From assembly GCA_026004615.1 (NCBI GenBank), contig BPJM01000005.1:477-64476 (forward strand): a DNA stretch of 64,000 nt, written 5' to 3'. Position 1 is the first letter of the stretch, and every line of letters begins with the position of its first letter. The notes below the pieces were generated by a model, which was given only the letters and a program-made list of their open reading frames with translations, made no database searches and was not told the origin of the DNA. A program made the translations under genes and the position numbers. Source of the stretch: Planctomycetota bacterium. GTDB lineage: Bacteria > Planctomycetota > J058 > J103. Positions 4,512 through 59,945 of this stretch are shown one piece after another.

Positions 4512-4892
4512 GCCGTCGCCAGCCTCGCCCACCGTGCCCGGCGCGGGCCAACCGCCCGCTCCTCTGTCTGTATCGGCGCGCTGCGGCCGCAGGTTCACAG
4601 CCCGGCGGGCGCGCGGTGCGGGGCCGGGCGGGCGGCAGGGCTCACCGCCCGCCGTGCGGGCCGCGAAGGGGGGCGGGACGCTGCCCGCGGGCGCTCGCAC
4701 CCCGCCGCCGCCCGATCGCACAGGCGCGCCGGCGAGCTGCTCGCGGCCGGGCGGTAGCTCGCGGCGAGAGGTCCGCCGATCCGGGCGGGGTGCGTGCGGG
4801 CGCGGGGCAGAAGGGAGCGGCAGCGCGCAAGTGCAGTTCCGGCGCCCGACCGGCCACTCCGCGGGCGCACGTTCCTGGCGGGGCAGCGGGCA

Positions 4893-5132: not shown

Positions 5133-5184
5133 CGGTTCGACCTCCGCCTGCTCCGCGCCCTGCTGGCGCGCCGCGCTGCTCCGC

Positions 5185-6058
5185 TCAGTCCAGCCGCGTG
5201 GCGGCCGTGTCGCCGGCGCGGATCTGCTGGCCGGGGGCGGTGAACAGCACCCGCGCGCCCGAGGAGTCGCGCATGGGCTTGGTCACCACCACCTTGCCGA
5301 TGAAGGTGTCGCGCCGGTAGATCGTGAACTGATAGCCCCGCTCCACGCCCTGATCCTTGCCCACGCTCAGCAGCACACTCGCCGGCTCGGTGCTGGTGTC
5401 GACCCCGGCCACCACGCCGTTGATCGCCGGCACCGGCGGGGGTACCGAGCACGATCTGGTACAGGTCGACGCCGTGCTCGGACTTGGCGGTGTCGATCAT
5501 GAGCTGCAGATCGAGCGCCTTCTGCTTGGCGTCGGCGTAGTCCTTGCGCGCCTGTCCGAGGTCCTTCTCCAGCGCCGTCTTCTGCTGGAGCAGCCGCGCC
5601 ACCTGCGCCTGGGCACGATCGAGGTTGTCCTTGGCGATCTTGAGCTCGCCATCGAGCTGGGTCACGCGCTGCAGGTAGTCGCGGATCTGGTCGTCCTTGG
5701 CCTGCAGGTTGGTGGACACCTCCTTGTGCGTCGCCTGCAGTTGCTCGAAGTCGCTGCGGAGGCGGTTGAACTCGGTGATGCGCTGCTGGGCGCTCAGCTC
5801 CAGTGCCTTGAGCTGGTCCTTGAGGTTGGTGACCAGCGCGTCGAGCTCGCCGATCTTGCGGTCCAGATCGCTGTTGGAACCGCGCAGGGCGGCGATCTGC
5901 GCCTCCTTGGCCTGGACCACCTGCTGGTGGTGCGAGCGGGCGCGCTCGTAGGCCTGGCGCCAGTTGTTCTCGTGATAGCTGAGCGTGGCCTGGGCGCCGA
6001 GGTAGATCAAGCTCAGCACCGTGACGATCACGATGAAGATCCTGCCGAGAAGGCTCAT
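5185..6058 (-). CDS. Protein with N-terminal TM, a long coiled coil and a C-terminal beta-rich domain. It is frameshifted in this assembly at about 5440-5460.
   Basis: ORF 5066..6058 gives MSLLGRIFIVIVTVLSLIYLG followed by a heptad-rich coiled coil. ORF 5185..5433, in another frame, gives a protein-like C-terminal domain (GVVAGVDTSTEPASVLLSVGKDQGVERGYQFTIY...). The two frames meet at a GGGGG/CCCCC run at 5447-5451. One indel there makes a single ~290 aa product. Confidence 0.5.
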
Positions 6059-6279: not shown

Positions 6280-8016
6280 TCACGGGCGGGCGGCCGGCCG
6301 GTGACGCCGGTCCGGCGCGACCAGCGCCGCCAGCGCGCCCAGCACCGCCAGGCCGACCGCGCCCAGCCCGGGCCAGTCGCCGTACCGCACGTAGAAGGTG
6401 CGTTCAGGGCTGGAGAGCAACGGCGCGCGGAGCGCGCCCTCGATCTGCTTGCGCCGTCCGTCTGCCCGCACCAGATCGTAGATCCGGCCCGCCGGATCGA
6501 CCAGGTGGCTGATGCCGCCATTGACCGCGGCGAGCACGCCGCGCCGCGTCTCGATCGCGCGGAACATGCCGTGGATGCGTGCCAGGTCCAGCTCCGCGCT
6601 GTCCTCGAACCAGGCGTAGTTGGAGACGTTGACGATGGCATCCGCGCCGGCGAGCACGCCCAGGCGCACCGCGCTGCTGAACGTGATGTCGAAGCAGACG
6701 TTGGGCGCGATCCGGAAGCCATCCAGCTCGAACAGCACCGGGCCGCGCCCCCGCTCGAACTGGCTGAAGCCGGGGGTGAAGTTCTCGCGCACGTACCTGT
6801 AGAAGGCCGGCCAGGTGTGCTGCAGCGGGGTGTATTCGCTGACCGGCGCCAGGTGCATCTTGTCGTAGCGGCCGAGCACGGTGCCGCTGGCGTCGAGATA
6901 AAAGGCGCTGTTGTGCTCGACCGGCTCCTGGCGATCCTGGTCCCACGCCGCATGCAACGAGCCGGCGATCAGCCGGCGCGCCCCGGCCTCGCGGAGCACC
7001 GCGGCGAGCCGCCGTTGCAGCTCGGGCACCTGGTCGACCGCGGCATACGGCAGCCGCGCGTCGGAAGCGCGCCAGACCGGAAGCATGGTCTCGGGCCAGA
7101 CCACCAGGTCCGGCGGGCTGCCGCCCGAGCGCGCGTGCTGGCGGGTGAGCCGCTCCAGGTCGCGCAGGCGCCGCATGGGGTCGAAGTCGGTGGCATTCTT
7201 GAGCCGCTGCGGGATGTGGGGCTGGACGGCGAGCGCCTCCGGGCCGCGGACGAAGCTCTGCGGGGTGAGCGCGGCCAGCCGGCCGGCACCATACAGCCAG
7301 GCGGCCAGGGTGGCGGCCAGGGGCAGCCAACCCAGCCGAGCGAGCCGCCGCCACGCGGTGCGGGCGGGCGGCCGGGCACCGGCGGGCGCGCTCGGCGGCC
7401 GCCAGGCGTTCCACAGATCGAGCACCAGGCCGTTCCAGGCGGCCACGAGCAGCGAGACCAGCAGCTGTCCGCCCAGCTCGGCGACCTGCACCACCGCCTG
7501 GAGCGGATAGACCGCGTGTCCGAGGTAGAACCACGGAAACGCCCAGAAGAACAGCCGGCCGCGCAGGCTCTCGCATGCCACCCACGCCAGCGGCAGCCAC
7601 ACCAGCGCCGGCCAGCCCGCCCTCGCCATGGGGCGAGCGAGCGTGGCGAACAGCAGTCCGTACAACCCGAAGCCGAATGCGGTGGCCAGCCACGGCACCA
7701 GGCCGAACAGCGCCAGCCAGTGCACCGCCGCTCCGCCGCCGAGCAGGAATCCGGCGAAGCCGCCGAGCAGCGCCTGCCGCAAGCGGGCCGCGCCCACGAG
7801 CCGGCCGAGCGGCGCCGCGCAGAGGAACGCCAGCGGCCAGAGCGCTGCGGGGTGGAACGCGAGGGCGAACAGCGCCGCGTGCGCGAGCACCAGCGCCGCC
7901 CACCGCCTCCAGGGCAGGCGTGGCGGTGCCGCCGGCGCGCCTGCCGCCGGAGCGGGCGCAGCTGCCGCGGGCTGCGGCGCTCGCTGCTGTGCCGGGCCAG
8001 CAGATCGTGCCGTCAT
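6280..8016 (-). CDS. lnt: Apolipoprotein N-acyltransferase.
   Basis: Multi-TM N-terminus followed by a CN-hydrolase domain. It carries VVWPE, the catalytic Lys region (YDKMHL) and the NVCFD Cys motif. The length is typical at 578 aa. Confidence 0.85.
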   Translation of the reverse strand: MTARSAGPAQQRAPQPAAAAPAPAAGAPAAPPRLPWRRWAALVLAHAALFALAFHPAALWPLAFLCAAPLGRLVGAARLRQALLGGFAGFLLGGGAAVHWLALFGLVPWLATAFGFGLYGLLFATLARPMARAGWPALVWLPLAWVACESLRGRLFFWAFPWFYLGHAVYPLQAVVQVAELGGQLLVSLLVAAWNGLVLDLWNAWRPPSAPAGARPPARTAWRRLARLGWLPLAATLAAWLYGAGRLAALTPQSFVRGPEALAVQPHIPQRLKNATDFDPMRRLRDLERLTRQHARSGGSPPDLVVWPETMLPVWRASDARLPYAAVDQVPELQRRLAAVLREAGARRLIAGSLHAAWDQDRQEPVEHNSAFYLDASGTVLGRYDKMHLAPVSEYTPLQHTWPAFYRYVRENFTPGFSQFERGRGPVLFELDGFRIAPNVCFDITFSSAVRLGVLAGADAIVNVSNYAWFEDSAELDLARIHGMFRAIETRRGVLAAVNGGISHLVDPAGRIYDLVRADGRRKQIEGALRAPLLSSPERTFYVRYGDWPGLGAVGLAVLGALAALVAPDRRHRPAARP

Positions 8017-8141
8017 GGCAGACCAAGCCTACCGGCCGGGCGGGCACAGGTCCAGACGGCCGGCCCGGCTTGCCAGCGGCGGCCCCGGCACCGGAGCACC
8101 GGACAGCTGCGGCGCGCCGGCTCCGGGCGCGCGGTGCGCAC

Positions 8142-22953: not shown

Positions 22954-26296
<3,343 letters not shown>

Positions 26297-46772: not shown

Positions 46773-48001
46773 GTCCGCCCCGCTCTGCGCTCGCCCCCTC
46801 CCGCGTGCGGTGCGGCCTGCTGCGGGCGCTCCTTGCCGGCAGCCCCGCCGGCGGCCGCCTCCGGCCGGTGCCGCTCGAGCAGCTGATCGAGCGCTGCCAG
46901 CAGCTCGCGCCGCATGCTCTCGGGCTCGACGATGCGCACATGGCGCAGCTTGGGCAACACCCACGCGATGAAGGCTTCGCGCCGGCGCACCTCGAAGACC
47001 ATCCGCACCCCGCCGCCGGGCAACGGCTCCAGCGAGCGGCGGGAGATCGGGCCCTGCAGGAACCAGCCGATGTGGGCATCCGCCTCGATCACGACCTCGG
47101 TCGGTGGCGCATCGGAGTACTCCCACGGCGGGCGCTCGAGGTAGTCGTGGAGGCGGAACTCCTCGGGCACCGAAAACGCGTGGGGTTCGCTGATCGTCGC
47201 CACGCCGCCCCGGATCCGGTCGAGCCGGAACGACTGCACCCGGTCGCGCCAGTGATCGCGTCCCACCAGGTACCAGGCGCCGCGCGCATAGCCGAGCCCA
47301 TACGGATCGACGGTACGCCGGCGCGTCTCGTCGCGGCTCATGCTGTAGTAGTCGAACGCCACGGTGCGGCTCGCCAGCGCCGCCGCCACCAGCGCTGGGA
47401 GGTTGGGATCGGCGCGCAGCCCGGCGATCAGATCGAGGTGGAGCACCGCCGAACGCCAGGCGCTTCCCTCGCTCCCCTGCTCCTGGGGGAGCGGGGCGGC
47501 ACGGCGCGGCCGCCCCCGCCGGCGCCGCGGGGGGGCGGGCACCGCAGGCCGCCCGCCGCCGGCCGCCTCCAGATCGACATCGAACGACAGCTTGCGCAGC
47601 GCCGAGATCAGATCGGGCAGGAACTCGCTCCGGTTGCGGATCGCATGCTCGCTGATCAGGTTGAGCAACGCGACCTCGTGCGGCAGCAGATCCACCTCGT
47701 CCAGGAACACCGCCTCGCGCGGGATCATGTAGCCCTCGGTCTCGAAGGCCCCCGGCGGGCAGTAGCGGATGGGGATGCCCATCTCCTTGAGCGCCGCCTT
47801 GTCACGCTCGAAGCGGCGCTCCAGCGACTTGGGATCGCTGCCATCGTCGTAGCCGACGACGCGGCCGGCGATGTCGCGCCAGGGGACCGGCTGGCGCTCC
47901 TTGAGCAGGTAGCTGACGAGGTTGAGCAGCCGCTCGGTCTTGGAGATCCGCGCCACCGGCGCCCCCTCGACGACCGCGCCCGGTCGGTGTGCGCTGGCCA
48001 A
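46769..48001 (-). CDS. WYL-domain transcriptional regulator (PafB/PafC-like), copy 1.
   Basis: RISKTERLLNLVSYLLKERQPVPWRDIAGRV... then WYL: AFDYYSMSRDETRRRTVDPYGLGYARGAWYLVGRDHWRDRVQSFRLDRI. Confidence 0.8.
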   Translation of the reverse strand: MASAHRPGAVVEGAPVARISKTERLLNLVSYLLKERQPVPWRDIAGRVVGYDDGSDPKSLERRFERDKAALKEMGIPIRYCPPGAFETEGYMIPREAVFLDEVDLLPHEVALLNLISEHAIRNRSEFLPDLISALRKLSFDVDLEAAGGGRPAVPAPPRRRRGRPRRAAPLPQEQGSEGSAWRSAVLHLDLIAGLRADPNLPALVAAALASRTVAFDYYSMSRDETRRRTVDPYGLGYARGAWYLVGRDHWRDRVQSFRLDRIRGGVATISEPHAFSVPEEFRLHDYLERPPWEYSDAPPTEVVIEADAHIGWFLQGPISRRSLEPLPGGGVRMVFEVRRREAFIAWVLPKLRHVRIVEPESMRRELLAALDQLLERHRPEAAAGGAAGKERPQQAAPHAGGGERRAGRT

Positions 48002-48124
48002 CCGCTGGCGAATGTAGCCGTCGGGCGCGATGGCATCAAGCGCCGCCGGCGAAGCGCCGCCGGCCGCTGCCCGGCGAGCGGACGGGCGCTGTCGGGTGCG
48101 CAGAACCGTAACGCGGGCCCGGTC

Positions 48125-48823
48125 CTACCGGTGCTCCCCTTCGCCGTCCCGGCTCGGGCCGGCGGGCAACTCCGCCCCGGGCTGTTCCGTCACGGCGGTG
48201 ACCTGCCAGCTCGGCGGCGCCGGCGTCTCGGCGGCGACGGTGCCGCCGCCCAGCAGCGTCTCGCTGACGGAACGCAGCAGGCTTGCCGGCTGCAACGCGA
48301 GCAGCGCGCCCACCGCGAGCAGCGCCGCCGCCACCGCTCCGGCCAGCGCGCCGGAGCGCCGCCGTTGCCGCCGCTCCCACGCTGCCAGGCGCTCTTCGGC
48401 CCGCACCTGCGCCTCCGCCTGCACCATGCCGAAGCGGTCGGCGAGCACGCGCGTCGCCTCCGACCAGCGCTGCTCCAGGCGCGCGCTGCTCTCGCGGATC
48501 GCCCGCACCACCTCGGGCAGGCTGTGGTGCAGCTCGCGGCGCAGCAGCTCGCCGGGACGAGCGGCGCACCGGCCGGACCGTTCGATCGAGCGCTGCACGG
48601 CGTCCAGGGCCTCGAGCTGGCGCTCCGCCTCCAGCGGCAGGACCTCGAGCGAGCGCGCCAGCCCCTCCAACCGCTCCATGAGGCGCTGCGCGCGCTGGTT
48701 CTGCGCCTCCAGCGTGCGGCCGACCTCTTCGATCAGCTCGGTGACCCGCCGGAAGCTGTGCCCGAGCGAGATGATGTCGGTGGGGCTCCAGGCGGCCTCC
48801 AGCTGCGCGGGCAACAGCGGCAT
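48125..48823 (-). CDS. Hypothetical coiled-coil protein with a C-terminal TM segment.
   Basis: Helical heptad-like N-terminus. TM: ALAGAVAAALLAVGALLAL. Weak evidence; the ORF is protein-like in composition. Confidence 0.4.
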   Translation of the reverse strand: MPLLPAQLEAAWSPTDIISLGHSFRRVTELIEEVGRTLEAQNQRAQRLMERLEGLARSLEVLPLEAERQLEALDAVQRSIERSGRCAARPGELLRRELHHSLPEVVRAIRESSARLEQRWSEATRVLADRFGMVQAEAQVRAEERLAAWERRQRRRSGALAGAVAAALLAVGALLALQPASLLRSVSETLLGGGTVAAETPAPPSWQVTAVTEQPGAELPAGPSRDGEGEHR

Positions 48824-49088
48824 TCGATCCGCCGGGGGGGCTGCCCGGCGCCAACGCCCGCCGGCATGCCACCCGCTCGTGCGCCCGCGGGACGGCCCCC
48901 ATCCGCTTCCGCCCGTACCGCGTGCCGGCGCTGCGATCGCGACCGCTTCGAGCGCTCCCTGCCCATCGCCTGTTCCCCCGATCCGGCGCGGCCGGCGAGG
49001 CCGCCTGCAGGGAGGATCGACACGGCGGGAGGCAGGCCTTTAGCGGCGCGAGCGCCGGGCGGGCGAACTGCTCTGGCCGGGGGCCTGC

Positions 49089-51056
49089 CTACTGGATCCC
49101 CAGCCGCTGGCGCACCTGGGCGAGCAGGCGCTCGCGCCGCAGCTCCAGCCCGGGATCGTCGGTGGGGACGGCGTCCCGCAGGTAATCGAAGGCGACCTCG
49201 GGCTTGCCCGCGGCGAGCGCCTGTTCGGCCAGTTCCACCGCCCGGCGCATGGCCTCGCGCGCTGCGGCGTCGACGTGCGAGCGCAGCCGTGCGACCTCCG
49301 CGGCATGCGAGGTGCCCTGGGCCTCGCGCGCCAGTTCCGCCAGGCGCTGGCGCGCCTCGGCGAAGCGTTCCTGGGCCAGCAGCTCGGCCAGCTCCCCCGC
49401 CTGCAGCGCGGCCAGCCGCCCGCCCACCCACCGCTCGCGCACCTCGTCGGGCGCGGGCAGCGCGGCCCGGGCCTGCTCCGCCGTGGACTGCGTGTGCCGC
49501 GCCGCCTCACCGGCGCCTGGACGCCGATTCTGCAGCAGCGCCAGCGCCAGCGCCGCGGCGACGGTACCTGCCACCAGCACCGCGGCCAGCAGCCCCCGCC
49601 GGCCCACGCGGGCGGGCGGCCCTCCGAGCCGCCGCTCCTCGGGCGAGGCGAGCGGCAGCCGCCGCGCGCGTGGCAGGGCGAGCCGGCCGCTGGCCGAGTC
49701 CGCGCGCCGCTCGGCGGCAAAGGGGTTCTTGCCCTTGCGGATGGCGATGATGTCCCGCACCAGCTCCTCGGCGGTCTGGTAGCGGCGCTCGGGGTCCTTG
49801 TGCATCATGCGCTCGAGCAGTTTCGCCACCGGACGGCTCACCCCCGGGGCGCGGCGGCGGATGGGGATCGGCTCCTCGGCGATGTGGCGCGCCATGATGG
49901 TGGCGGGGTTGTCGCCGACGAACGGCGGTTCGCCCGCGAGCATGTGGTAGAGAGTGGCGCCGAGGCTGTAGATGTCGCTCCGCACGTCGACGTCGGTCAC
50001 CCCCCGCGCCAGCTCCGGCGAGACGTAGTAGGGCGTGCCGAGCGTCTTGCCCTCGGTGGTCAACGAGCAATCGCTGGTCAGCTGCTTGGACAGGCCCAGG
50101 TCGGTCAGCTTCGCCACCCCGTTCGGGGTGACGAGGATGTTCTCCGGTTTGACGTCGCGGTGCACGATATGTCGGGACGAGGCGTGCGCGAGCGCCTTGG
50201 CGACCTGCAGCACGATCGCCAGCGCCTCGTCCTCGTCGAACGGACCGTCCTCCTTGATCATCTCGGCGACCGACCAGCCGTCGACGTATTCCATGGCGTA
50301 GTAGTACAGCCCGTTGGATTCCCCGACATCGATCGCCGAGACGATGTTGGGGTGGTTCAACGAACCGGCGAGCTTGGCCTCGCGCACGAACCGCTTGAGG
50401 AAGCGGGCATGGGAGGCGTAGCGCGGCGCCAGCACCTTGAGCGCCACCTCCCGCCGCAGCGACTTCTGCACCGCGCGGTAGACCACCCCCATGCCGCCCT
50501 GTCCGCGGCGCTCCAGCAGCTTGTAGCCCGCGATGGGATCCCGGGTGCGCTGCAGCCGCAGCACGTACTTGGCCTGGGTGGCGGTGAGCAGGCCCAGCTT
50601 GACCGCGATCTTGCCGATCTTGTGCCGCCTGCCCTCCGCGCGGAGCCGCCGCTGCACCCGCAGCGCCTCCTCGATCTGCGGCGCCGTGCAGAAACGCTGC
50701 AGCACCGCGAGCTCCCCGAACAGCAGCTCGCCCTCGGCGCCGACGGCGGGCGCCGGCTCGACCGGGGCGCGAGCAGCGGAGCCGGCGGGCAGGGGCGGCA
50801 GGGTGGCCGCAGCGGAGCTGCTGCCGCCGCGCAGCGCCTCCATCTCGCCGTCGGAGGAGTACAGGGGAGGCGGTGCGAGGTGCGCCACCGCGTCGCTGCC
50901 GTCACGGTCCTCCTCGGCGCCGGCGGGCTCCGCGGCCCCGCCCGCGTGCGCCGGCACGGCGGGCCCACCCTGCTCCGGCGGCGGGCTGTCCGTGCTGGCG
51001 CGCGCCGCCAGACCGTCGGTCCCGGTCGTGCTCTGCGGTTGCGGGTCGTCTCGCAT
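49089..51056 (-). CDS. Ser/Thr protein kinase, a paralog of the 36229 kinase. It has an N-terminal MshEN/T2SSE_N-like domain, then the kinase, then a TM segment and a helical tail.
   Basis: LLFGELAVLQRFCTAPQIEEALRVQRRL...IGKIAVKLGLLTATQAKYVL. Kinase: GQGGMGVVYRAVQ, HRDVKPENI, DLGLSK, GTPYYVSPE. TM: GLLAAVLVAGTVAAALALALL. Confidence 0.85.
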   Translation of the reverse strand: MRDDPQPQSTTGTDGLAARASTDSPPPEQGGPAVPAHAGGAAEPAGAEEDRDGSDAVAHLAPPPLYSSDGEMEALRGGSSSAAATLPPLPAGSAARAPVEPAPAVGAEGELLFGELAVLQRFCTAPQIEEALRVQRRLRAEGRRHKIGKIAVKLGLLTATQAKYVLRLQRTRDPIAGYKLLERRGQGGMGVVYRAVQKSLRREVALKVLAPRYASHARFLKRFVREAKLAGSLNHPNIVSAIDVGESNGLYYYAMEYVDGWSVAEMIKEDGPFDEDEALAIVLQVAKALAHASSRHIVHRDVKPENILVTPNGVAKLTDLGLSKQLTSDCSLTTEGKTLGTPYYVSPELARGVTDVDVRSDIYSLGATLYHMLAGEPPFVGDNPATIMARHIAEEPIPIRRRAPGVSRPVAKLLERMMHKDPERRYQTAEELVRDIIAIRKGKNPFAAERRADSASGRLALPRARRLPLASPEERRLGGPPARVGRRGLLAAVLVAGTVAAALALALLQNRRPGAGEAARHTQSTAEQARAALPAPDEVRERWVGGRLAALQAGELAELLAQERFAEARQRLAELAREAQGTSHAAEVARLRSHVDAAAREAMRRAVELAEQALAAGKPEVAFDYLRDAVPTDDPGLELRRERLLAQVRQRLGIQ

Positions 51057-51090
51057 CGCCGCCGTCCGCTGCCGGTTGCAGCCGGCCTCT

Positions 51091-51981
51091 TCAGTCTAGC
51101 ACGCAGCCGACGCCGCGGGCCTGCTGCCCCGCGCTCGGGCCGGCCGCGACACCGCCGCGCTGCGGCGGGGGATCGACCGGGGGTGCCAGCACCGCCACCA
51201 GTTCGTGCTCCGCGCGCTCGAGTTCTCCCTCGACCAGCTGCCAGCCCAGACGCGCGGCAAACGCGGCGCGCAGTGCTGCCGCCAGTTCGGCCCGGCTCAC
51301 CGGGCGGCCGGCGGCGAGCCGCACCGTGGTCGCCGCCGGCGCGTTGGGGCGGGCGCCGAGCGGTATCGCCCCGTGCATGAGCAGCGCCCGGCCGGCGTGG
51401 CGCTGCGCGCTCGCGATGAGCTTGCGCCCGCCGGCGAAGATCGCCGCGCCGCGCGCCCGCTCGTAGCACAGTGCCGGTTCGTCGCCCGCCCCGGGTCGGG
51501 GCGCGGCCGGCAGCGGCTCGCAGCCTCCGGACGCCTGGGCGCCGCCGGCCGGTCCGCGAGCCGGCGCCATCTCCGCGGCGCACCGTCCAGTGGCGCCGTT
51601 GCGCAGCTCCGCCGCGATCCCCAGCCGGTCGAGCGCCTCCAGCAGCGCCGCGTGCACCGCGGCGATCGCCGCCCGCAGTGCGCCGCGGCGGGGCCGCCCG
51701 CCGCCGAGCGCGGCGAGGGGGGCGGCGATCGCATAGGTCAGTTCGTCCCGATGCAGCACCGCTCCCCCCCCGCTGGGTCGCCGCACCCACGGCAGGCTCC
51801 GCAGCGCCGGCGGCGCCTGATCGCGCGCGAGCTGCTGGAAGCGGCCCAGCGAGACCGCCGGCTCCCTCCATCCGTACACCCGCAGGGTCGGACGGCGTTC
51901 CGCCCCGGCGAGCAGCGCCGCATCCAGACCCATGTTCCAGCCCGGGGCGCCCTCACCGGTGTCCAGGTAGCGCACGCGCAT
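51091..51981 (-). CDS. Lipoate-protein ligase / octanoyltransferase family protein (BPL/LPL catalytic domain) with an Ala/Gly-rich insertion.
   Basis: RRPSGGGAVLHRDELTYAIAAP and a catalytic Lys region (AGGRKLIASAQRHAGRALLMHGAI). Confidence 0.6.
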   Translation of the reverse strand: MRVRYLDTGEGAPGWNMGLDAALLAGAERRPTLRVYGWREPAVSLGRFQQLARDQAPPALRSLPWVRRPSGGGAVLHRDELTYAIAAPLAALGGGRPRRGALRAAIAAVHAALLEALDRLGIAAELRNGATGRCAAEMAPARGPAGGAQASGGCEPLPAAPRPGAGDEPALCYERARGAAIFAGGRKLIASAQRHAGRALLMHGAIPLGARPNAPAATTVRLAAGRPVSRAELAAALRAAFAARLGWQLVEGELERAEHELVAVLAPPVDPPPQRGGVAAGPSAGQQARGVGCVLD

Positions 51982-52132
51982 CTCCGCCCAACCGCCTCGG
52001 ATCCGAAACAGGGGATGGTAGCACTGCGGTCAAGGGCGTGGCGGCCCAGACCGCCTCCAGCCCCGGGCTGCAGGAGCGGGGGGGCGCGAGGGGCCGGCGC
52101 TCCGGGGCGGCTCGGGCGCGGCAAGCGCGCGC

Positions 52133-52648
52133 TTGCAAGCGCGGTGCGGATGCCCGATGCTGCGGAGCGGCGACGGCGGGGCAGCGGAGGAGCTGCCGGT
52201 GCGGCGAGCGGCGATCGCGCTGGTGGCGCTGGTGGCGCTCGGGCTCGGCTGGCGAGCGCTGTTTTCGCGGCCGCAGGACGAGGCGGCGCGGGTGCGGGAG
52301 GTGATCGACGCCGTGATCGCGGCGCTGGAGGACAAGGCCACCGGCAGGGTGCTGGAGCACCTCGCACCGGACTACCGCGACGCCGGCGGACTCGATCGGG
52401 CCGGCGTCCACCGGGTGCTGGTCGCCACCTTTTTGCGGCGCCGCGCGATCGCGGTGAACAGGCTGACTCCGACCCGGGTCGAGCTGCGTCCCGATCGTAC
52501 CGCCACCGCCTCGTTCACCGTGGCGGTGAGCGAGGGGCTGTCAGCCGGCGCCCTGGCCGATGCGGGGATCTGGGACGTCGAGGTGGAGCTGGCGGAGCGC
52601 GAGGGCGCCTGGCGGATCACCGGGCACCGGCGCGTGCGCAGGCGCTAG
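52133..52648 (+). CDS. Hypothetical membrane-anchored protein (possibly an NTF2-like fold).
   Basis: N-terminal TM: AAIALVALVALGLGW. The soluble domain shows alternating beta-like segments. Weak. Confidence 0.4.
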   Translation: MQARCGCPMLRSGDGGAAEELPVRRAAIALVALVALGLGWRALFSRPQDEAARVREVIDAVIAALEDKATGRVLEHLAPDYRDAGGLDRAGVHRVLVATFLRRRAIAVNRLTPTRVELRPDRTATASFTVAVSEGLSAGALADAGIWDVEVELAEREGAWRITGHRRVRRR

Positions 52649-52663
52649 GCGGGAGCGGGTGCG

Positions 52664-54757
52664 GTGGGCGGCGCGCGGCGCTCGTCAGGTTCGGGGCGGC
52701 TGCGATTCGCCGAGCCCGGCACCGTCACACCGCCCTGGCACGTGCGCGCAAGCCATATGCTCGCCGAGGCGGGGCAGCGGGTGTTGCTGGCAGCGCAGGC
52801 GCGGCGCCGGGGCCTGGCGTGGGCGGCGATCGTCCTGCTGCTGTCGGGGCTGCTGGCCGCCGACGCGTACCTGCTCCTGCAGGACGCGCACATCGCGCGG
52901 CGGCTGGAGGCCGCAGCGCGCCGCCGGCTGGGCTGCGAGGTCGTGCTCGAGGGCCTGGAGCTGTCGCTCGGGGGCACGGGCAGCGTGGCAGCGGCGTCGC
53001 TGGTGCTCGCGCCGCCGCGCTCAGGCGCCAGACCGACGGTGCTGCGCGCTGCCCGGGTGCGGTTCACGCACGCACCGCTGGCCCTGCTGCGCGGGAGCCT
53101 GCGCCTGGAGGCGGTGCGCGTCGCGGAGGTGCAGATCACGGTCGATGCACCGCTGGTGTTGCTGGAGGCGGTGCAGGTATTGTGGCGCGCGCTGGGCGCG
53201 GAGACCTCGGGCGAGGACGGCTTCAGCCTCGAGGTCGCGCGCCTGGTGTTCGCCCCGGCTGCCGAGGACGGACTCGGGGGGCAAGGGCCGGTCGCGGAGC
53301 CGGCTCCGGCCTCCGGCCGCGGCGCCGCCGGGCAGCTGCCCGCCGCGGTGGTGCTCGAAGGGGTCGAGGTCCGGCCGGCCGGCCGGGGCGCCGCCGCGCT
53401 CCGCTTCCGGGCGCGCTACCGTGCGGCGGCGATGGAGACGCTCGGTCTGGAGGGCACGATCGACTTCGAGACCCAGACCGCGCGGCTGGACGTGCGCGCC
53501 TCCAACCTGCCGGTGCATTCGCCGGCACTCGCCGCACTGGCCCCGGCGCTGGCGCCCTTGATCGCGGCGCTGGGGGCGCACGGGCCGGTCGATCTCGACC
53601 TCGACGTCGATTACCCGTGGCAGGCACCCGCCGCTGCCGAGGTCGCGGGCACGATCGAGTGTTATGCGCTGGCGCTGGAGCCGCCGCTGCTCGCAGCTGC
53701 GGTCACCAACGTCGCCGGTCAGCTGCGGCTGGAGGGCCGGCGGCTGGCGGTGACGGGGCTGCGCGGGGTGTACGGCGGCGGCGTGATCCGGGTGCGGGGC
53801 GAGCTCGGCGACCTGGTCACGGGCAGCGGGGTGCGCCTCGACGTGACGGCGACGCGGCTGCAGCTCGAGGCGCTGGCCGGGCTGAAGCTCGGCCCCTGGG
53901 CGCGGGCGCTGGGCGCGCTCCAGCTCGGCGGCCAGGGTGGCGGGCGGCTGAGCCTGGCGAGCGAGCCGGGCGTGCCGCTCGCCAGGGCGCAGTTCGACGG
54001 GGAGTTGCTGCTCGAGCAGGCGCAGGTCCTGGGCGGGGCGCTCGGCAACGTGCACGGTGCGGTGCGTTTCGCGGGGCGGCTGGGGGCCGGCGAGCCGCTG
54101 CGGGGCGCGCTCGTGCTCGACCGGGCACAGCTGGCGGACGACGTCCCGCTGCGCGGGCTCGGCGCCGAGCTCGCCTTCGGGCCGGCGGGTCTGGTGCTGG
54201 AGCGCGGCAGCGGGCGGCTCGCCGGGGGGACGATCCGGTTCGCAGCCGAGGTACGACCGGCGGCGGCGAAGCCCGCGGTGCGGGTGGAGCTCGAGGCGGA
54301 GGGGGTGGACGCGCTGCCGGTGTTGCGCGCGCTCGGGATCGAGACGCGGCTGGAGGCCATGCGGCTCCGCGGCGAGCTGCGCTATCGGGGGGGCGGCTCC
54401 CAAGAGCCCGGCCTGGCCGTCGAGGTGCGGTTCGGCGGGCTCGAGCTGGGCGAGCTGCCCCCCCTCCGGCCGCTGGTCGAGCTGTTGCAGGAAGCGGGGG
54501 TGGCGGCGACGCGGTTCGAGCGCGGGACCGCGCAGCTCGCTCTCGGCGCCTTCGATCCCGAGCCGCTAGGTGGGTATGCCCTGCGCCTGAGTCTGTTCTC
54601 CGAGCCCTATGACCTCGGACTCGCCGCACGCCTGCGTCCCGGGGGGCGCCTGGAGGGGACCGCCACCGCGCTCCGCCGAGACGCAGGCCGCGCCGAGCGC
54701 TACCACATCGCCGGCACCCTGGCGCACCCGCTGTTCACCAGCCCCTTCGAACCCTGA
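52664..54757 (+). CDS. AsmA/TamB-like large envelope protein (N-terminal TM anchor plus a long beta-rich region).
   Basis: TM: LAWAAIVLLLSGLLAADAYLLL. Repetitive beta-strand-like segments follow (LEGLELSLGG; LRLEAVRV; LEGRRLAVTGLRGVYGGGVIRVRGEL...). The true start may be the Met at about 52757. Confidence 0.5.
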   Translation: MGGARRSSGSGRLRFAEPGTVTPPWHVRASHMLAEAGQRVLLAAQARRRGLAWAAIVLLLSGLLAADAYLLLQDAHIARRLEAAARRRLGCEVVLEGLELSLGGTGSVAAASLVLAPPRSGARPTVLRAARVRFTHAPLALLRGSLRLEAVRVAEVQITVDAPLVLLEAVQVLWRALGAETSGEDGFSLEVARLVFAPAAEDGLGGQGPVAEPAPASGRGAAGQLPAAVVLEGVEVRPAGRGAAALRFRARYRAAAMETLGLEGTIDFETQTARLDVRASNLPVHSPALAALAPALAPLIAALGAHGPVDLDLDVDYPWQAPAAAEVAGTIECYALALEPPLLAAAVTNVAGQLRLEGRRLAVTGLRGVYGGGVIRVRGELGDLVTGSGVRLDVTATRLQLEALAGLKLGPWARALGALQLGGQGGGRLSLASEPGVPLARAQFDGELLLEQAQVLGGALGNVHGAVRFAGRLGAGEPLRGALVLDRAQLADDVPLRGLGAELAFGPAGLVLERGSGRLAGGTIRFAAEVRPAAAKPAVRVELEAEGVDALPVLRALGIETRLEAMRLRGELRYRGGGSQEPGLAVEVRFGGLELGELPPLRPLVELLQEAGVAATRFERGTAQLALGAFDPEPLGGYALRLSLFSEPYDLGLAARLRPGGRLEGTATALRRDAGRAERYHIAGTLAHPLFTSPFEP

Positions 54758-54795: not shown

Positions 54796-56336
54796 TCAGT
54801 AGGTGCGTGCCGCGTCGAGCACGGCGCGGGTGGTGAACGTCTGGGGATCGACGAGCACGCCGATCGTGCCGACGAAAGCGTCGGGTCCCTGGAAGTCGCG
54901 CCCGGGCAGTCCGGGGCGCAGTGCGAGCACCGAGGCGTTGGGACCGAAGGTGTCCGCGGTCTCGTTGCCGCGGCTGAGCCGGTGCTGGCGGCGGAAGACC
55001 GGGGTGCGGCCACGGCGGGCATCGAACACATTCAGCGTCGAGTCGTTGAACGAGACGGCGAGCAGCCGCCGGCCGCCGTCGTTGCTGTAGGCGAGCGCAC
55101 TGGTGAAGCGGCCCGTCGGCGGTTTGTCCGGGTTGGCGAACGGGATCGTGATCGGGTTGGCGACGCCGTTGAGGATCGCCCCGGTGAGGTCGGCCGGGGC
55201 CTGGATCGTGCCGTCGAGCACCAGGTCGAGCTCGAGCAGCGACACGCGGAAGATCTCCGCCAGTCCGAAACCGAAGTCGCCGCGGCCCACCACCGCCTCC
55301 AGGCCGTCCGGCCGCACCGCGGCCGCATGGCGCGCCGCGGCCGGCCCGAAGGGGAAGAACGCGACCAGCTGCGCCTTGTTCGGGTCGATCACCTCGAGGA
55401 AGGCGTGGTCGGCCTCGGGGGGCGAGGCGCCGAAGAGCACCCGCCCGGCGCCGCTCGTCGTGACGTACAGCACCGGGCGGCCGTCCGGGGTGCGGGCGGC
55501 GCGCAGCCCGGTGACGTTGAACCCGCGGGTGAAGACCACGTGAGCCGGCTGCGGCACCCCCGGCTCGAAGCGGGTGTGATCGAGCGGGTCGAGCGCGAAG
55601 CCGAGCACGAGCCCGGGGAAGTTGTCGAGGAAGCTCGCGGAGGGGTCGGCGCTCGACATGAGGTTGGCGCAGCCGACCCAGAGGGTGTCCCCGAGCACCG
55701 CCAGCGCCTGCGCGCCGGGGTCGGTGGGGGCGAAGCTCGGGTCCGCGGTGCCGGTGGAGGTCATGAGTCCACTCGCGGTGAGCTGCAGGCTCGTCAGCTC
55801 GAACTCCGCGCTGGGGCCCGTGCCCGCCAGCGCGTCGAACAGATAGACCTTGTGCTGGCTCTGGCCGGTGAGGCTCCGGCCGGTCGAGGTCGCGAAGCCG
55901 GCCAGCTTGCCGCCACGCCGCTCGGTGTCGATCACAAGTCCGGCGGCTGCGGGTCGGAAAACCGCTCGCATCGAAGGTGCCGATCACGAGGGTCGCGCTC
56001 GAGCGCGGGGGGGCTGTTGGGCGACATCGAGCACGCGCAGTGTCCCGCCCTGCTGCAGGGCGAACAGCAGCTCGGGTGCCGCCGGCGTGGGTCGCGAGTG
56101 CGGTCAGCGAGTCGCCGTCGGCGAAGGCGAACGCATCTTCGGTGACCGTGAGCGCCGGAAACCCACCGGGCTCGGAGCGCGAGCAGCCGGCGAGCGCCAG
56201 CAGCAGGGCGGCCCCCGAGCACCGCGGCGCGCCGCAGCGCGGCGGGCGAGCCCTTCGCCCCGCAGGGGGGCCGGTGCGCGAATGCACCTGGAGGAACGAT
56301 CGGGAGAGATGAATGGGGCGGGTTGCGATGGAACAC
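54796..56336 (-). pseudogene. Lipoprotein with YVTN/beta-propeller-like repeats, disrupted by about 2-3 frameshifts in its first 120 codons. It lies directly downstream of a cobalamin riboswitch.
   Basis: An AGGAGG ribosome-binding site lies 8 nt before the GTG at 56336. The lipoprotein signal is readable only in another frame (RCGAPRCSGAALLLALAGC|SRSEP, ORF from 56287). The sequence passes through two further frames around the C6 run at 56264-56269 and the C7 run at 56007-56013. The long clean frame 54796..55971 has blade-like repeats (DGRPVLYVTTSGAGRVLF; RRLLAVSFNDSTLNVFD). Confidence 0.5.
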
Positions 56337-56439
56337 GGCCAGGACCTCCTTCCCGTCCGCGCGGGTCGAGGGTTGCGGGGATCCGCCGCCGGGCGGCGGG
56401 CCCGTGTGCGGTCGCGGGGAACGGGTCTTCTGGCTTCCG

Positions 56440-56650
56440 GATCGCCCTACTCGCCGCGCCTTCCCGTGTGCCCGCTCCGAGCGGACCGCACAGTGGCCGC
56501 CTGCGGCTTTCGTCCCCGGTCACAGCGGCGGGACCGCGACGGACTCGCACCGTCTTCCCCCGGCTTCCCGGACCGACCGAACCGATTGTCGAGCGCGCCA
56601 TGATAGCGGGGGCTAGCGCCGCATCAAGCCTCTTTTCAAGTGCAGGCGCG
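56440..56650 (-). promoter_or_regulatory. Cobalamin (AdoCbl) riboswitch.
   Basis: Minus-strand RNA reads GGGAAGCCGGGGGAAGAC-GGUGCGAGUCC-GUC-GCGGUCCCGCCGCUGUGACCGGGGACGAAAGCC-GCAGGCG-GCCACUG-...-GGGAAGGCG. That matches the conserved GGUGnnAnUCC, CCCGCnGCUGUGAcCGGGGA, B12-box GCCACUG and 3' GGGAAGGC elements. A GC-rich hairpin follows (CCGCCGCCCGGCGGCGG, about 56395-56420), then AGGAGG and a GTG. Confidence 0.8.
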
Positions 56651-56659
56651 GTGGGTCTC

Positions 56660-57432
56660 TCAGCCGAACAGCACGCAGGGCCGGCCGGTGCGCGGGTGGC
56701 GGATGACCTCCGGGGGGCGACGCCGAAGGCGCGCTCGAGCGGCTCGGGGCGGAGCACCTGCTCGGGGCTGCCCGTGGCGATCAACCGCCCGCTGGCCAGC
56801 AACGCCATGCCGGTCGCGTACTGTGCCGCCAGGTCGAGGTCGTGCGAGGTGGCGAGGATGGCGAGCCCTTGCTCCCGCCGCAGCCGGTCCAGCAGCCCGA
56901 ACAGCGCCACCCGGTGCCGCACGTCGAGGAACGCCGTCGGTTCGTCGAGCAGGAGCAGGCGCGGCTGCTGGCACAGCGCGCGCGCGATCGCGACCCGGCG
57001 CCGCTCGCCGCCGGAGAGCCGATCGAGGGGGCGGTCGGCGAGCGGCTCCAGCTCCAGCGCCGCCAGCGCCGCGCGCGCCTGCGCCACGTCCTCGGGACCC
57101 TCCAGCACCAGCCGGCCCAGGTGCGGCGCCCGACCCATGAGCACGATCTCGCCGACGGTGAAGGCGAAGCCGAACGGCGCCTCCTGCGGCACCACCGCGA
57201 CGGCGCGCGCCAGCTCCCGCCGGCCCCAGGCGCCGAGCGGCCGCCCCTCGAGCGCGATCGTTCCCGCCTGGGGGCGCAGCTCGCCCGCCAGCAGCCGCAG
57301 CAGGGTGGACTTGCCGGCGCCGTTGGCGCCGCCGAGCACCACGAACTCGCCGCGTCCGAGCTGCAGATCGACCCCGTCCAGCACCGGCGGTGCGCCGGGA
57401 TAGCCCAAAGCGCAGTCCGTGCGCCGCGATCA
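56660..57432 (-). pseudogene. ABC transporter ATP-binding protein, BtuD/FepC/FecE family, with two apparent frameshifts.
   Basis: Main frame: LGYPGAPPVLDGVDLQLGRGEFVVLGGANGAGKSTLL...LSGGERRRVAIARAL...LLLLDEPTAFLD...ILATSHDL. The N-terminal [10 protein letters not shown] is in another frame from a GTG at 57432, overlapping the btuC stop. The family-typical C-terminus EVIRHPRTGRPCVLFG* is in a third frame ending at 56660. One extra C in the C6 run at 56712-56717 restores it. The 434-aa ORF 56104..57408 is a read-through artifact. Confidence 0.7.
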
Positions 57433-58516
57433 CGTCTGCGCCTCCGCGAGCGGCACGCGCTGGCGATGCAGCAGCAGCCACAGAAACAGCGGTCCGCCGG
57501 CCAGTGCCGTCACCACCCCGACCGGCAGTTCCTCGGGGGCGAGCGCGCTGCGCGCCGCCGCGTCCGCCAGCACGAGCAGTGCCGCCCCGGCGAGCATGCT
57601 CGCCGGGACCAGCAGCCGGTGATCCGGTCCACACACCAGGCGCAGCAGGTGGGGCACCACCAGCCCGACGAAGCCGACCAGCCCGCTCAGCGCCACGGCG
57701 ACCGCCGTCACCAGCGAGCCGGTGAAGAACAGCGCCACCCGGACCGCGCGCACCGCCACCCCGAGGCTGCCCGCGACCGTCTCGCCCAGGGCTAGCAGGT
57801 TGAGATCGCGGGCCAGCCACTGCAGGACGAGCCCGCCTCCCAGCGTCACCGCGGCCGCCGCTCCCAGGCCGGCCGGCCCCACCGCGACCTGGCCGAGGCT
57901 GCCGGTCAGCCAGGCGAGGATGCGCAGCCGCTCGCTCGGCGGGACCAGGTGGGCGAGGAGCAGGATCCACGACGACAGGATCGCGTTGACGACCACGCCG
58001 AGCAACAGCAGCGTCGCGCCCGCGGTGCCGAAGCTGCGCCGGCCCAGCACGAAGATCAGCGCCGCGACCAGCAGGGCCCCGGCGAACGAACACGCCGGCA
58101 TCCAGAGCGGAGCGGCAACCCCGAGAGCCAGCACCGCGAGCGCCGCCCCGAGCGCGGCGCCGCTGGAGACGCCGAGGAGGAACGGATCGGCCAGCGGGTT
58201 GCGCAGCAGCGCCTGGAAGGCGACGCCGGCGCCGGCGAGGGCGGCGCCCACGATGGCGCCGGCGAGCACGCGCGGCGCGCGGTGGTGGGAGCACGATCTG
58301 GCCTTCCGGGCTGAGTTCGCCCTGGCGGGGCGCGCGCCAGCGCCTCGCCCCCAGCCCGTGTGCCCGCGCGAGGGCGGCGAGCTCGCGCGCGAGCCGGAGC
58401 GGCCCGGCGCCGGGTGCGGGCCCGCTGGTGAGGCCGGCCGCGAGCGCCACCACGAGCAGGGCCGCCAGCGCCCCGGTCCAGCCGAGCCAGCGCCGGCGGG
58501 TCAGCCGCCGCCTCAC
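57430..58516 (-). CDS. FecCD-family ABC permease (BtuC-like), with one frameshift near 58290.
   Basis: ORF 57430..58269 gives [41 protein letters not shown]...[36 protein letters not shown]...[19 protein letters not shown]. The N-terminal TM part ([26 protein letters not shown]...[14 protein letters not shown]) is in the frame of ORF 56660..58516. Confidence 0.75.
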
Positions 58517-59535
58517 CGCGGATCCGCTCCGCTCGGGGGCCGGTGCGCGCTCGCCGCCGCCTCCGGTTCACCGGGGAACGCCTCCGGGTGGAGCGCGCGG
58601 GCGAGCGCCTGCAGACCGTCGACCAGGCGCGGGCCGGGGCGCACCAGCAGCTCGGGTGGCAGCGCATGCACGCGGCCGCTCCGCACCGCCGGCACCCCGC
58701 TCAGGCGCTCCCAGAAGCGCGCGCGGGGCGGCGGCCGCGGTCGCGGCGGTGCCGGGCGGTGCCATGCTGAGCTCGATGACCACCTCCGGCGCCAGCGCCA
58801 CGATCGCCTCCTCGCCGATCTCGGGCCAGCGCCGGCCGCTCGCCTGCAGCACATTGCTTCCGCCTGCGATCTCGAGCAGCGCGCCGAGGAAGGAGCCCGG
58901 TCCGGCGGCAATCGTCGGGTGGCGGTCGACGACGATGAGGGTGCGGGGGTCGCGGCCGACTGGCGACGGCGCGGCGTATCGCCTCGGTGCGCGCGCGCAG
59001 CGTCGCGGCGAGGGGTGCGCGCGCGCAGCTCGGTCTTCTCCCCGAGCAACGTCCCCAGCCGTTCGACGGCGGCGAACAGATCGGGCAGCGCCGTGACCGT
59101 CACCGCCTCGAGCCGCACACCGAGCCGGCGCAGCGCGAGCGCCGGCGCCAGGAGCGTGCCCTCTGCCGGCACGAGCACGAGATCCGGCCGGCACGCGAGC
59201 ACCAGCTCCACGTTGGGGCTGCCGTAGCCGCCCACCCGCGGCAGCGCGCGCGCGGCCGGCGGAAAGTCGCAGTGCGAGGTCACCCCGACCAGCCGCTCGC
59301 CCGCGCCGAGCGCGAACACGATCTCGGTGAGCGAGGGGGCGAGCGAGACCACGCGGCGGGGCGGCGCCGGGCTGCGGGGACGCTGGGGCGCGCTCGCCGC
59401 CGCCGGTGCGGTGGCTGGCCCGCCGGCGCCCTCACAGCCCGGCCCCGCCAGCGCAGCGGCGGTGGCCATCGCGACGCCCAGGCCCACCAGCAGCAGCGGG
59501 CGCGGCACCTGCGGCCGGACGGGCGCGCGCCTCAC
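58513..59535 (-). pseudogene. Periplasmic substrate-binding protein of a TroA/BtuF-like class (cobalamin/siderophore-type), signal peptide present. It is split over two frames, so there are two frameshifts.
   Basis: N-terminus in frame 0: signal peptide, then [33 protein letters not shown]...RPDLVLV. The middle is in the frame of ORF 58568..59194: [34 protein letters not shown]...[20 protein letters not shown]. The C-terminus is back in frame 0: [32 protein letters not shown]. Confidence 0.7.
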
Positions 59536-59945
59536 GGCGCCACCAGCTCCACCTTGATGCGGTCCGGATCCTCGAAATACACCGCGTAGTGGCCGGGACC
59601 GCCGGCGTACGGGTGCCGATCCTCGTACAGCACGGTCACCCCGCGCGCCCGGAGCAGACGCGTCACCTCATCGACCTGCTCGCGCGAGGCGGCGTGCAGG
59701 GCGAGGTGGTTGAGCCCGACCCGCTTGCGATGATAGGGCGGCTCGAGATAGGCCCCTTCGGCCTGCACCAGGACGAGATAGCTCGGGCCGAGCCGCCAGC
59801 TCCGCCCGCCCTCCCAGCGCTGGAACGGCCGGTAGCCGAGCAGCTCCAGCAACCATCCCCAGAACGCCGCCGACCGCTCGAGGTCGGAGACGTACAGCTC
59901 CAGGTGGTGCAGGGTCCCGACCCGTGGCGCCGCGGGCTGCATCAC
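59532..59945 (-). CDS. VOC/glyoxalase-family protein (137 aa).
   Basis: [30 protein letters not shown]...[64 protein letters not shown] overlaps occur at both ends (proC stop and btuF start). Confidence 0.75.

Follow-up and report, generated by a model that had tools for sequence, protein, structure and literature searches.

A cobalamin riboswitch precedes a single lipoprotein gene on the minus strand of the 64,000-nucleotide stretch of DNA analysed here (the window), and genes resembling btuD, btuC and btuF lie on its upstream side (Table 1). The NCBI record assigns the DNA to a Planctomycetota MAG (KatS3mg102), which corrects the 'Myxococcota-like' label given in the first-pass annotation. 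The Rfam covariance model RF00174 matches the leader at 73.7 bits (E = 2.7e-16), where the gathering score is 31.5, and no other match in the 64-kb window reaches gathering level, so that this aptamer is the single one. The riboswitch had initially been recognized from four conserved elements, GGUGCGAGUCC, CCCGCCGCUGUGACCGGGGA, GCCACUG and GGGAAGGC; all of them are contained in the RF00174 alignment, in which the core junctions also align. The 3' end of the aptamer lies 88 nt from GTG 56336, and the orthologous aptamers of two related loci score 75.9 bits (L001) and 81.1 bits (L005). The element is thus a genuine, class-typical cobalamin riboswitch in the same-strand 5' leader of one lipoprotein gene.

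Table 1. Features of the riboswitch–lipoprotein locus and adjoining genes (window coordinates)
Feature	Position	Strand	Evidence and remarks
Convergent hypothetical gene, bounding the lipoprotein transcription unit	52649..54757	+	Synteny conserved among relatives
Beta-propeller lipoprotein gene	54796..56336	-	GTG start 56336; 3' ORF 54796-55971 intact
Lipobox L-A-G-C, Cys codon 56185-56183	56183..56194	-	Cys nearly invariant in alignment A4
Expression platform	56337..56423	-	MFE folds; SD/start alignment with L001 and L005
Cobalamin riboswitch aptamer (RF00174) with B12 box GCCACUG	56424..56559	-	Rfam score
Predicted sigma-70-like promoter TTGATG-16-TATCAT of the riboswitch-lipoprotein transcript	56600..56627	-	0.0 expected in shuffles
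BtuD-like ABC ATPase gene, not behind the riboswitch	56660..57440	-	ABC_tran 4e-35; 66% identity to L001 ortholog; 2 disruptions near 57410, 56715
BtuC-like FecCD permease gene	57430..58516	-	FecCD 7.8e-72; 1 disruption near 58330
BtuF-like periplasmic binding protein gene	58513..59535	-	Peripla_BP_2; HSPs against L001 in frames -2/-1/-2; 2 disruptions near 58940, 58740
VOC/glyoxalase gene	59532..59945	-	Glyoxalase match; 4-nt overlap with btuF
proC (P5CR)	59942 to about 60763, ORF to 61111	-	4-nt overlap with VOC gene

The lipoprotein gene is monocistronic, as had been suggested, since its end faces that of a convergent gene across the short interval from 54796 to 54757. Its product carries an LAGC lipobox and models as a 7-bladed beta-propeller, which bears out its earlier description as a YVTN-type propeller lipoprotein, the likeness to YVTN proteins being distant; no Pfam or NCBIfam family covers it. 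The single gene behind the riboswitch therefore encodes a lipoprotein built around a 7-bladed beta-propeller. On the other side of the riboswitch, genes for P5CR/proC, Glyoxalase/VOC, Peripla_BP_2, FecCD and ABC_tran follow one another toward it on its own strand, overlapping by 4 nt. The btuFCD-like genes are indeed coupled to proC and the VOC gene and leaderless: an Rfam scan of the 64-kb window places no riboswitch upstream of the proC-VOC-btuF-btuC-btuD string. Among NCBIfam models, BtuF (98 bits, cut-off 234) and BtuC (214 bits, cut-off 461) rank first for the respective L001 orthologs, and heme and corrinoid ATPase models lead for BtuD; all scores stay below the cut-offs. A tblastn search of the window detected no gene for a TonB-dependent receptor.

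The leader has the predicted layout of a translational switch. One sigma-70-like site lies before the riboswitch, compared to 0.0 expected in shuffles, and L005 has a counterpart (TTGACA-16-TATCAT) upstream of its own riboswitch. A search of the riboswitch-lipoprotein leader for terminator-like sites found none, and a U-tract terminator is absent. The AGGAGG site originally noted was located at 56350-56345, 8 nt upstream of the GTG, and both it and the start codon align with the start regions of the L001 and L005 orthologs. In the MFE fold, the predicted partner of the SD region GGGAAGGAGG (56354-56345) is a C-rich segment that directly follows the aptamer on its 3' side; the expression platform includes a lineage-specific GC hairpin. 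Predicted folds enclose the SD in a helix in the leaders of the window, L001, L005, L007, L025 and L028; the z-scores for SD sequestration in these GC-rich leaders are non-significant save that of L007 (z = -2.7). The missing terminator and the SD in a predicted helix imply an OFF switch that would act on translation. The arrangement resembles the E. coli btuB leader and other translational cobalamin riboswitches, which combine an RF00174 aptamer and B12 box with an SD in a predicted helix and no intrinsic terminator. In contrast to those systems, the riboswitch here controls a lipoprotein gene that stands alone, in place of btuB, btuFCD, a cob gene or a B12-independent isozyme gene.

Frame disruptions are concentrated in the uptake genes of the window. 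At least nine fall within 55950-59350 and affect four of four such genes (btuF, btuC, btuD and the propeller gene) but none of ten neighbours, namely the nine flanking genes common to the window and L001 and the VOC gene, each of which keeps one reading frame. Four to five single-base disruptions (near 56216, 56085, 56010, 55995 and 55952) lie in the first ~390 nt of the propeller gene. The start initially assigned to this gene stands, but the reading frame behind it requires as many repairs before the intact ORF is reached; similarly, the btuD stop at 56660, which delimits the interval to the lipoprotein gene, is correctly placed but reached only after frame repair. All disruptions are one-base changes in C/G runs, and they reflect either local assembly error or recent decay. 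Their confinement to the uptake genes would fit a B12-uptake cluster that is decaying in this genome, so that the riboswitch fronts a pseudogene while the family is functional elsewhere. We regard such decay as possible and lean against it. One-base changes in C/G runs are typical of long-read consensus error, and the riboswitch, the promoter-like site and the SD are unbroken. Amino-acid identity to the L001 orthologs is 60–77% for the disrupted genes and 62–74% for their intact neighbours; relaxed selection is therefore not apparent. Judging by its name, the MAG was probably assembled with metaFlye from HiFi reads > Q20 (PMC9671151), in which a thinly covered patch could yield the pattern.

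To place the locus among its relatives, we compared gene order around homologous propeller genes. A cobalamin riboswitch heads the operon in about 15 loci, comprising 7 in which it directly precedes the propeller gene and 8 that are receptor-linked. The direct arrangement occurs in the window, L001, L005, L007, L008, L025 and L028, which are of Planctomycetota type, and in none of them does a receptor gene adjoin the propeller gene. In L001 the pair is placed after btuFCD, whereas no btuFCD lies upstream of it in L005, L025, L007, L008 or L028. The riboswitch-lipoprotein pair is thus conserved in six other loci, five of them without upstream btuFCD. This recurrence argues that the riboswitch serves the lipoprotein gene rather than btuFCD, in line with the first-pass annotation. 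Among the receptor-linked loci, the order is riboswitch, TonB-dependent receptor, propeller in L016, L019, L020, L023, L024 and L029, and a DUF4465 (BtuJ-like) gene is inserted between riboswitch and receptor in L026 and L031. The propeller gene often overlaps the receptor gene, by 4-7 nt, and TonB-B12 TIGR01779 is the best NCBIfam match for three of three receptors tested. The L024 operon runs on into two Peripla_BP_2 genes, ABC_tran and FecCD (BtuF/BtuCD-type), which are homologous to btuFCD of the window. A riboswitch leads the family genes almost always where upstream DNA suffices. Riboswitch and btuFCD are both missing from the close ortholog lineage P0003 (L002-L004), and not even a degenerate riboswitch was detected upstream of its ortholog at E<=10. 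At E<=0.1, no riboswitch was detected in L010 and L021, or in L009 and L011, where receptor and propeller genes are present and the operon heads may fall outside the loci.

The lipoprotein belongs to a hitherto unannotated family. An exhaustive profile search gave about 100 clusters of relatives at 50% identity, found in Planctomycetota, Myxococcota and other high-GC contigs; a search of genome contigs gave one locus, and word-seeded protein searches with profiles added nothing further. The stand-alone and receptor-linked classes align over 429 columns with an hhalign probability of 100% (E 1.8e-41), which makes the two architectures one family. In a 25-sequence alignment (A4) the lipobox cysteine is nearly invariant; P0002-P0005 and P0010 have canonical lipoboxes, and the residue before the cysteine is non-canonical in many receptor-linked members. 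A C-terminal signature, RPGxPGxD[FY]xGPD, is the family's own. The pI is 4.0-5.0 in 18 of 20 sampled members. Acidity is widespread among exported proteins. Our survey of the literature on BtuG-like proteins, on cobalamin riboswitches with YVTN/YncE proteins and on Planctomycetes/Myxococcota found no earlier description.

The closest known parallel is BtuG, which has been reported as exclusive to Bacteroidetes (PMC6143338); in BtuG2 the propeller face that binds B12 is negatively charged (PMC10404256). As references we used Pfam PF16819/DUF5074, with BT1954 (PDB 3DSM/8BMX) as an example, and the BtuB-BtuG complexes 8BM0 and 8BLW; test sequences were taken from the eLife supplement. None of 25 family members matched PF16819 at E<=10, whereas 10 of 11 true BtuG sequences did, and hhalign of the family against BtuG gave probabilities of 18.5% and 3.2%. 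On these results BtuG homology was rejected as not detectable in sequence, and no BtuG chain appeared among the PDB sequence matches. The proposed structural comparison with BtuG yielded the 7-bladed propeller fold but no specific similarity: fold matches were generic, with no particular likeness to BtuG or BtuK. The parallel lies in architecture and gene context. Like the new family, BtuG is an acidic, 7-bladed propeller lipoprotein, and it is encoded in cobalamin-riboswitch operons directly after a BtuB-type receptor, together with DUF4465/BtuJ- and BtuF/BtuCD-type genes, as are many of the relatives. The analogy drawn in the first-pass annotation has therefore gained strength from relatives that directly follow BtuB-like receptors in riboswitch operons, some of which also carry DUF4465/BtuJ-like genes or, in the case of L024, BtuF/BtuCD-type genes; DUF4465 proteins are proven B12 binders (PMC13398666, PMC13616437). 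Unlike BtuG, which adjoins btuB, the window's subfamily has no adjacent receptor, and the new family lacks the Bacteroidota lipoprotein export signal.

Other propellers are less similar in context or build. At E<=0.01, TIGR02276 repeats were detected in 7 of 25 members, all outside the window's subfamily, and the family profile matched the YVTN S-layer domain 1L0Q at 9.4e-16. The likeness to YVTN-type propellers (TIGR02276; Methanosarcina S-layer 1L0Q; E. coli YncE 3VGZ) is one of blades and superfamily only; in contrast to the new family, YncE and S-layer YVTN proteins have no known B12-regulon context. BtuK1 and BtuK2 of Bacteroides are propeller lipoproteins of a B12-uptake locus (B12 locus 1), as here, and BtuK1 binds cyanocobalamin (PMC13616437). 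They combine a PKD domain with a 7-bladed propeller, whereas the new family lacks a PKD domain and gave no sequence match to 4R5O.

By analogy, the propeller lipoprotein probably serves in B12-repressed capture and hand-off of corrinoids outside the cytoplasm, as a functional counterpart of BtuG without detectable sequence kinship. An unannotated propeller family that sits in the B12-uptake operons of many non-Bacteroidota bacteria is a probable new kind of B12-capturing protein. With abundant adenosylcobalamin, the aptamer would fold, the SD would be held in a helix with the C-rich anti-SD segment and translation would stop. When B12 is scarce, the lipoprotein would be made, exported and lipid-anchored outside the cytoplasm, where one face of the acidic propeller may capture corrinoids. 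These could then be passed to the BtuB-like receptor in receptor-linked relatives, or toward BtuF-BtuCD, encoded next door in the window.

Alternatively, the protein might belong to the B12 regulon without binding corrinoids, acting as a receptor partner or lid, an assembly factor, or an enzyme for corrinoids or another need of B12 scarcity. Lactonases or redox subunits make up several propeller families, yet matches to such families fall far below their cut-offs and no catalytic motif was identified. A role as a receptor lid only is at odds with the 7 loci where the gene stands alone behind the riboswitch, and the slot after btuB mirrors that of BtuG, a B12 binder. We therefore consider a non-binding role unlikely. 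Far less credible still is a riboswitch left over from a rearrangement, once controlling btuFCD or btuB and placed before the lipoprotein gene by accident: the btuFCD-like genes do adjoin it without a leader of their own, but it follows btuD and is transcribed away from that gene, the pair recurs at 25-65% protein identity mostly without btuFCD upstream, and promoter, SD and start codon align among orthologs, so that orientation and synteny rule out a misplaced btuFCD riboswitch.

So far, surface capture of B12 by propeller lipoproteins has been regarded as a trait peculiar to gut Bacteroidota. Our data indicate that the genetic slot of BtuG is taken by a sequence-unrelated propeller family in Planctomycetota, Myxococcota and other high-GC bacteria of the environment, in some cases with no outer-membrane receptor. 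Beyond the capture role itself, we tentatively suggest, at slightly less than even confidence, that this is an unrecognised and widespread non-Bacteroidota family of corrinoid-capturing propeller lipoproteins that arose independently of BtuG and was recruited beside BtuB; its solitary place behind the riboswitch in Planctomycetota-type genomes would imply a receptor-independent B12 route to BtuF-BtuCD. Lacking a Pfam or NCBIfam family, the clusters escape neighbourhood surveys like the DUF4465 study. If binding holds true, B12 scavenging would have convergent solutions, some 100 protein clusters would gain a name, and corrinoid auxotrophy and competition could be traced by a further marker gene in sediments, hot springs and marine metagenomes.

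A cobalamin riboswitch in the window heads a one-gene unit that encodes a propeller lipoprotein. An Rfam scan of the whole window returned RF00174 (cobalamin riboswitch) as the sole gathering-level match, at 73.7 bits against a threshold of 31.5 (E 2.7e-16), and its alignment contains all four sequence elements on which the first-pass annotation had based its riboswitch call. The same-strand genes upstream encode P5CR, Glyoxalase/VOC, Peripla_BP_2, FecCD and ABC_tran domains and show 4-nt coordinate overlaps. The scan found no RNA element before this string, which confirms that the riboswitch lies after the btuFCD-like genes and not before them. With these genes upstream and the end of a convergent gene at 54757 facing the lipoprotein stop at 54796, the riboswitch heads a single gene, as had been proposed.

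Riboswitch control is most likely translational, as judged by analogy. No terminator-like site was found at the riboswitch leader. A predicted helix pairs the Shine–Dalgarno (SD) sequence with a C/U-rich segment 3' of the aptamer in the window and in the related loci L001, L005, L007, L025 and L028, the paired sequences varying from locus to locus. Because fold z-scores are unremarkable in the GC-rich leaders, with L007 as the exception, the proposed SD-sequestration step draws on the E. coli btuB leader. The window leader also carries a perfect GC hairpin, CCGCCGCC/GGCGGCGG, at 56375-56400 (-), which has no U-tract and is lineage-specific, being missing from the L001 and L005 leaders.

Features of the window and of syntenic loci, with frame disruptions per gene
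Feature	Position	Strand	Frame disruptions	Remark
Sigma-70-like promoter	56627-56600	-		TTGATG-16-TATCAT; upstream of aptamer; none in shuffles
Cobalamin riboswitch aptamer	56559->56424	-		RF00174
Leader, 87 nt	3' of aptamer	-		contains GGGAAGGAGG at 56354-56345
Propeller lipoprotein start codon	56336	-		GTG; end of 87-nt leader
btuF			2	
btuC			1	
btuD			2	
Propeller gene, 5' end			4-5	
Nine flanking genes common to L001, plus VOC			0	
Conserved downstream block	window 46800-54757; L001 11481-19188; L002 11448-20075			
Apolipoprotein N-acyltransferase (Lnt)	6280-8028	-		
MreB	3459-4892	-		
Ser/Thr kinase-FGE-sulfatase fusion	22958-26296	+		

The intact portion of the propeller gene is a 391-aa open reading frame (54796-55971), identical to NCBI 'hypothetical protein KatS3mg102_1740' from a MAG labelled Planctomycetota. 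Full-length orthologs span 477-486 aa, and comparison with them reveals four or five changes of frame in the first ~390 nt, each located in a C/G run and repaired by removal of one base. The repaired N-terminus contains RRAAVLGGALLLALAGCSRSEP, a lipoprotein signal with the lipobox LAGC. The Lnt gene in the window suggests that lipoproteins of this organism are triacylated. Relative to L001, a syntenic close relative with btuFCD, the interval 55950-59350 contains at least nine single-base homopolymer frame disruptions, all falling in btuF, btuC, btuD or the 5' portion of the propeller gene; identity of the disrupted genes to their L001 orthologs is not below that of neighbouring genes. Either a patch of low coverage in the assembly or a recent decay affecting the entire B12-uptake cluster would fit these disruptions; to judge by its name, the MAG probably stems from the Katase hot-spring HiFi/metaFlye study (PMC9671151).

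Gene order 3' of the propeller gene is kept in close orthologs even without btuFCD and the riboswitch, both of which are absent in the lineage of the relative P0003 (L002-L004). This downstream block comprises convergent hypothetical genes of ~600-700 aa and ~150 aa, an LplA-B_cat gene, a Ser/Thr kinase and WYL regulators.

To place the unit in context, we fetched 31 related loci and scanned them with Rfam. The riboswitch is carried by 15 of them in addition to the window, counting only loci with a visible operon start, and these cover at least about ten lineages with <50% identity between them. It lies directly 5' of the propeller gene in the window, L001, L005, L007 (another Planctomycetota MAG), L008, L025 and L028; within this stand-alone class, btuFCD is upstream only in the window and L001, and the genes upstream of the L005 riboswitch are divergent. 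In a receptor-linked class, the order is riboswitch, TonB-dependent receptor, propeller (L016, L019, L020, L023, L024 and L029), with a DUF4465 gene between riboswitch and receptor in L026 and L031. The L024 operon further carries two Peripla_BP_2 genes, an ABC ATPase and a FecCD permease. Six more loci have the receptor directly 5' of the propeller (L009, L011, L012, L013, L017 and L022), their operon heads being truncated or lying outside the fetched sequence; no riboswitch was found in the fetched sequence of L009 and L011. The reading frames of receptor and propeller share a few bases, and a TonB-dependent B12 receptor model was the best NCBIfam match for all three receptors tested, at scores below the cut-off. 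One receptor-linked member comes from a Myxococcota MAG.

Both classes encode one family: hhalign aligns their profiles over 429 columns with 100% probability (E 1.8e-41), and the aligned region takes in the N-terminal Cys as well as the C-terminal motif RPGxPGxD[FY]xGPD. Word-seeded searches had yielded only seven relatives of the window propeller; an exhaustive profile search yielded 101 cluster representatives at E<=1e-3, of which 50 reached E<=1e-10. The family profile matched the YVTN S-layer domain 1L0Q (9.4e-16) and 7 of 25 members weakly matched the YVTN repeat model, so the description as a YVTN-type propeller holds at the superfamily level. In most members, a signal peptide is followed by Cys and a Gly/Ser-rich linker, and 18 of 20 sampled proteins have a pI of 4.0-5.0 (the remaining two, 5.6 and 6.0). 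Many receptor-linked members (P0016, P0036, P0046 and P0047 among them) lack a canonical lipobox, having K, R or D just before the conserved Cys (for example GAKCGGG or GADCGGG), and carry several additional conserved cysteines; judging from sequence, their anchoring may differ from that of the stand-alone class.

BtuG, reported to be exclusive to Bacteroidetes (PMC6143338), belongs to Pfam family PF16819 (PMC13398666). DUF4465 proteins (BtuJ) are experimentally shown B12 binders, and in Bacteroides BtuB-BtuG is a capture-and-transfer complex (PMC13398666, PMC13616437, PMC10404256). PF16819 matched 10 of the 11 BtuG sequences that we took from the eLife supplement but none of 25 propeller-family members, even at E<=10, and profile-profile probabilities between the families were 18.5% and 3.2%. 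PDB sequence matches of the family profiles included no BtuG or BtuK chain; a generic YVTN protein weakly matched BtuG1 (8BLW_B, deposited as 'YncE family protein') at E 0.24. While not a BtuG member, the family resembles BtuG by context, sharing its operon position, operon composition and riboswitch as well as its fold class, lipid anchor and acidity. From this analogy we infer that these lipoproteins capture corrinoids or hand them on outside the cytoplasm; their partner would be the BtuB-like receptor in the receptor-linked class and the BtuF-BtuCD system in the stand-alone class, as in the window. The comparison of related loci supports the interpretation given in the first-pass annotation. 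Our literature searches turned up no account of such a family beyond the Bacteroidota; the system is of the riboswitch-controlled corrinoid-uptake accessory lipoprotein kind, to which the propeller family would add a new variant.

Several receptor-linked loci contain additional genes. At L016 (5761-7675; also L012, L014, L019 and L020), two conserved genes without a Pfam family come after the propeller gene; one encodes a 309-aa protein without a match, the other a 341-aa protein weakly matching the ScyD/ScyE family, and both may be further unannotated components of that B12 operon. The riboswitch-receptor interval of L029 (1494-2911) encodes two proteins, one of 189 aa that ends in a PEP-CTERM-like tail and one of 282 aa that resembles a lipoprotein, and a 141-aa gene (6560-6985) overlaps the propeller-gene end. 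L013 carries a second cobalamin riboswitch (88.3 bits) at 5162-5345 (-), 3' of the receptor-propeller pair, on the opposite strand and reading towards the pair. Finally, a shorter second propeller-like gene is located ~1 kb upstream of the receptor in L009 (133-1251) and at the equivalent position in L011.
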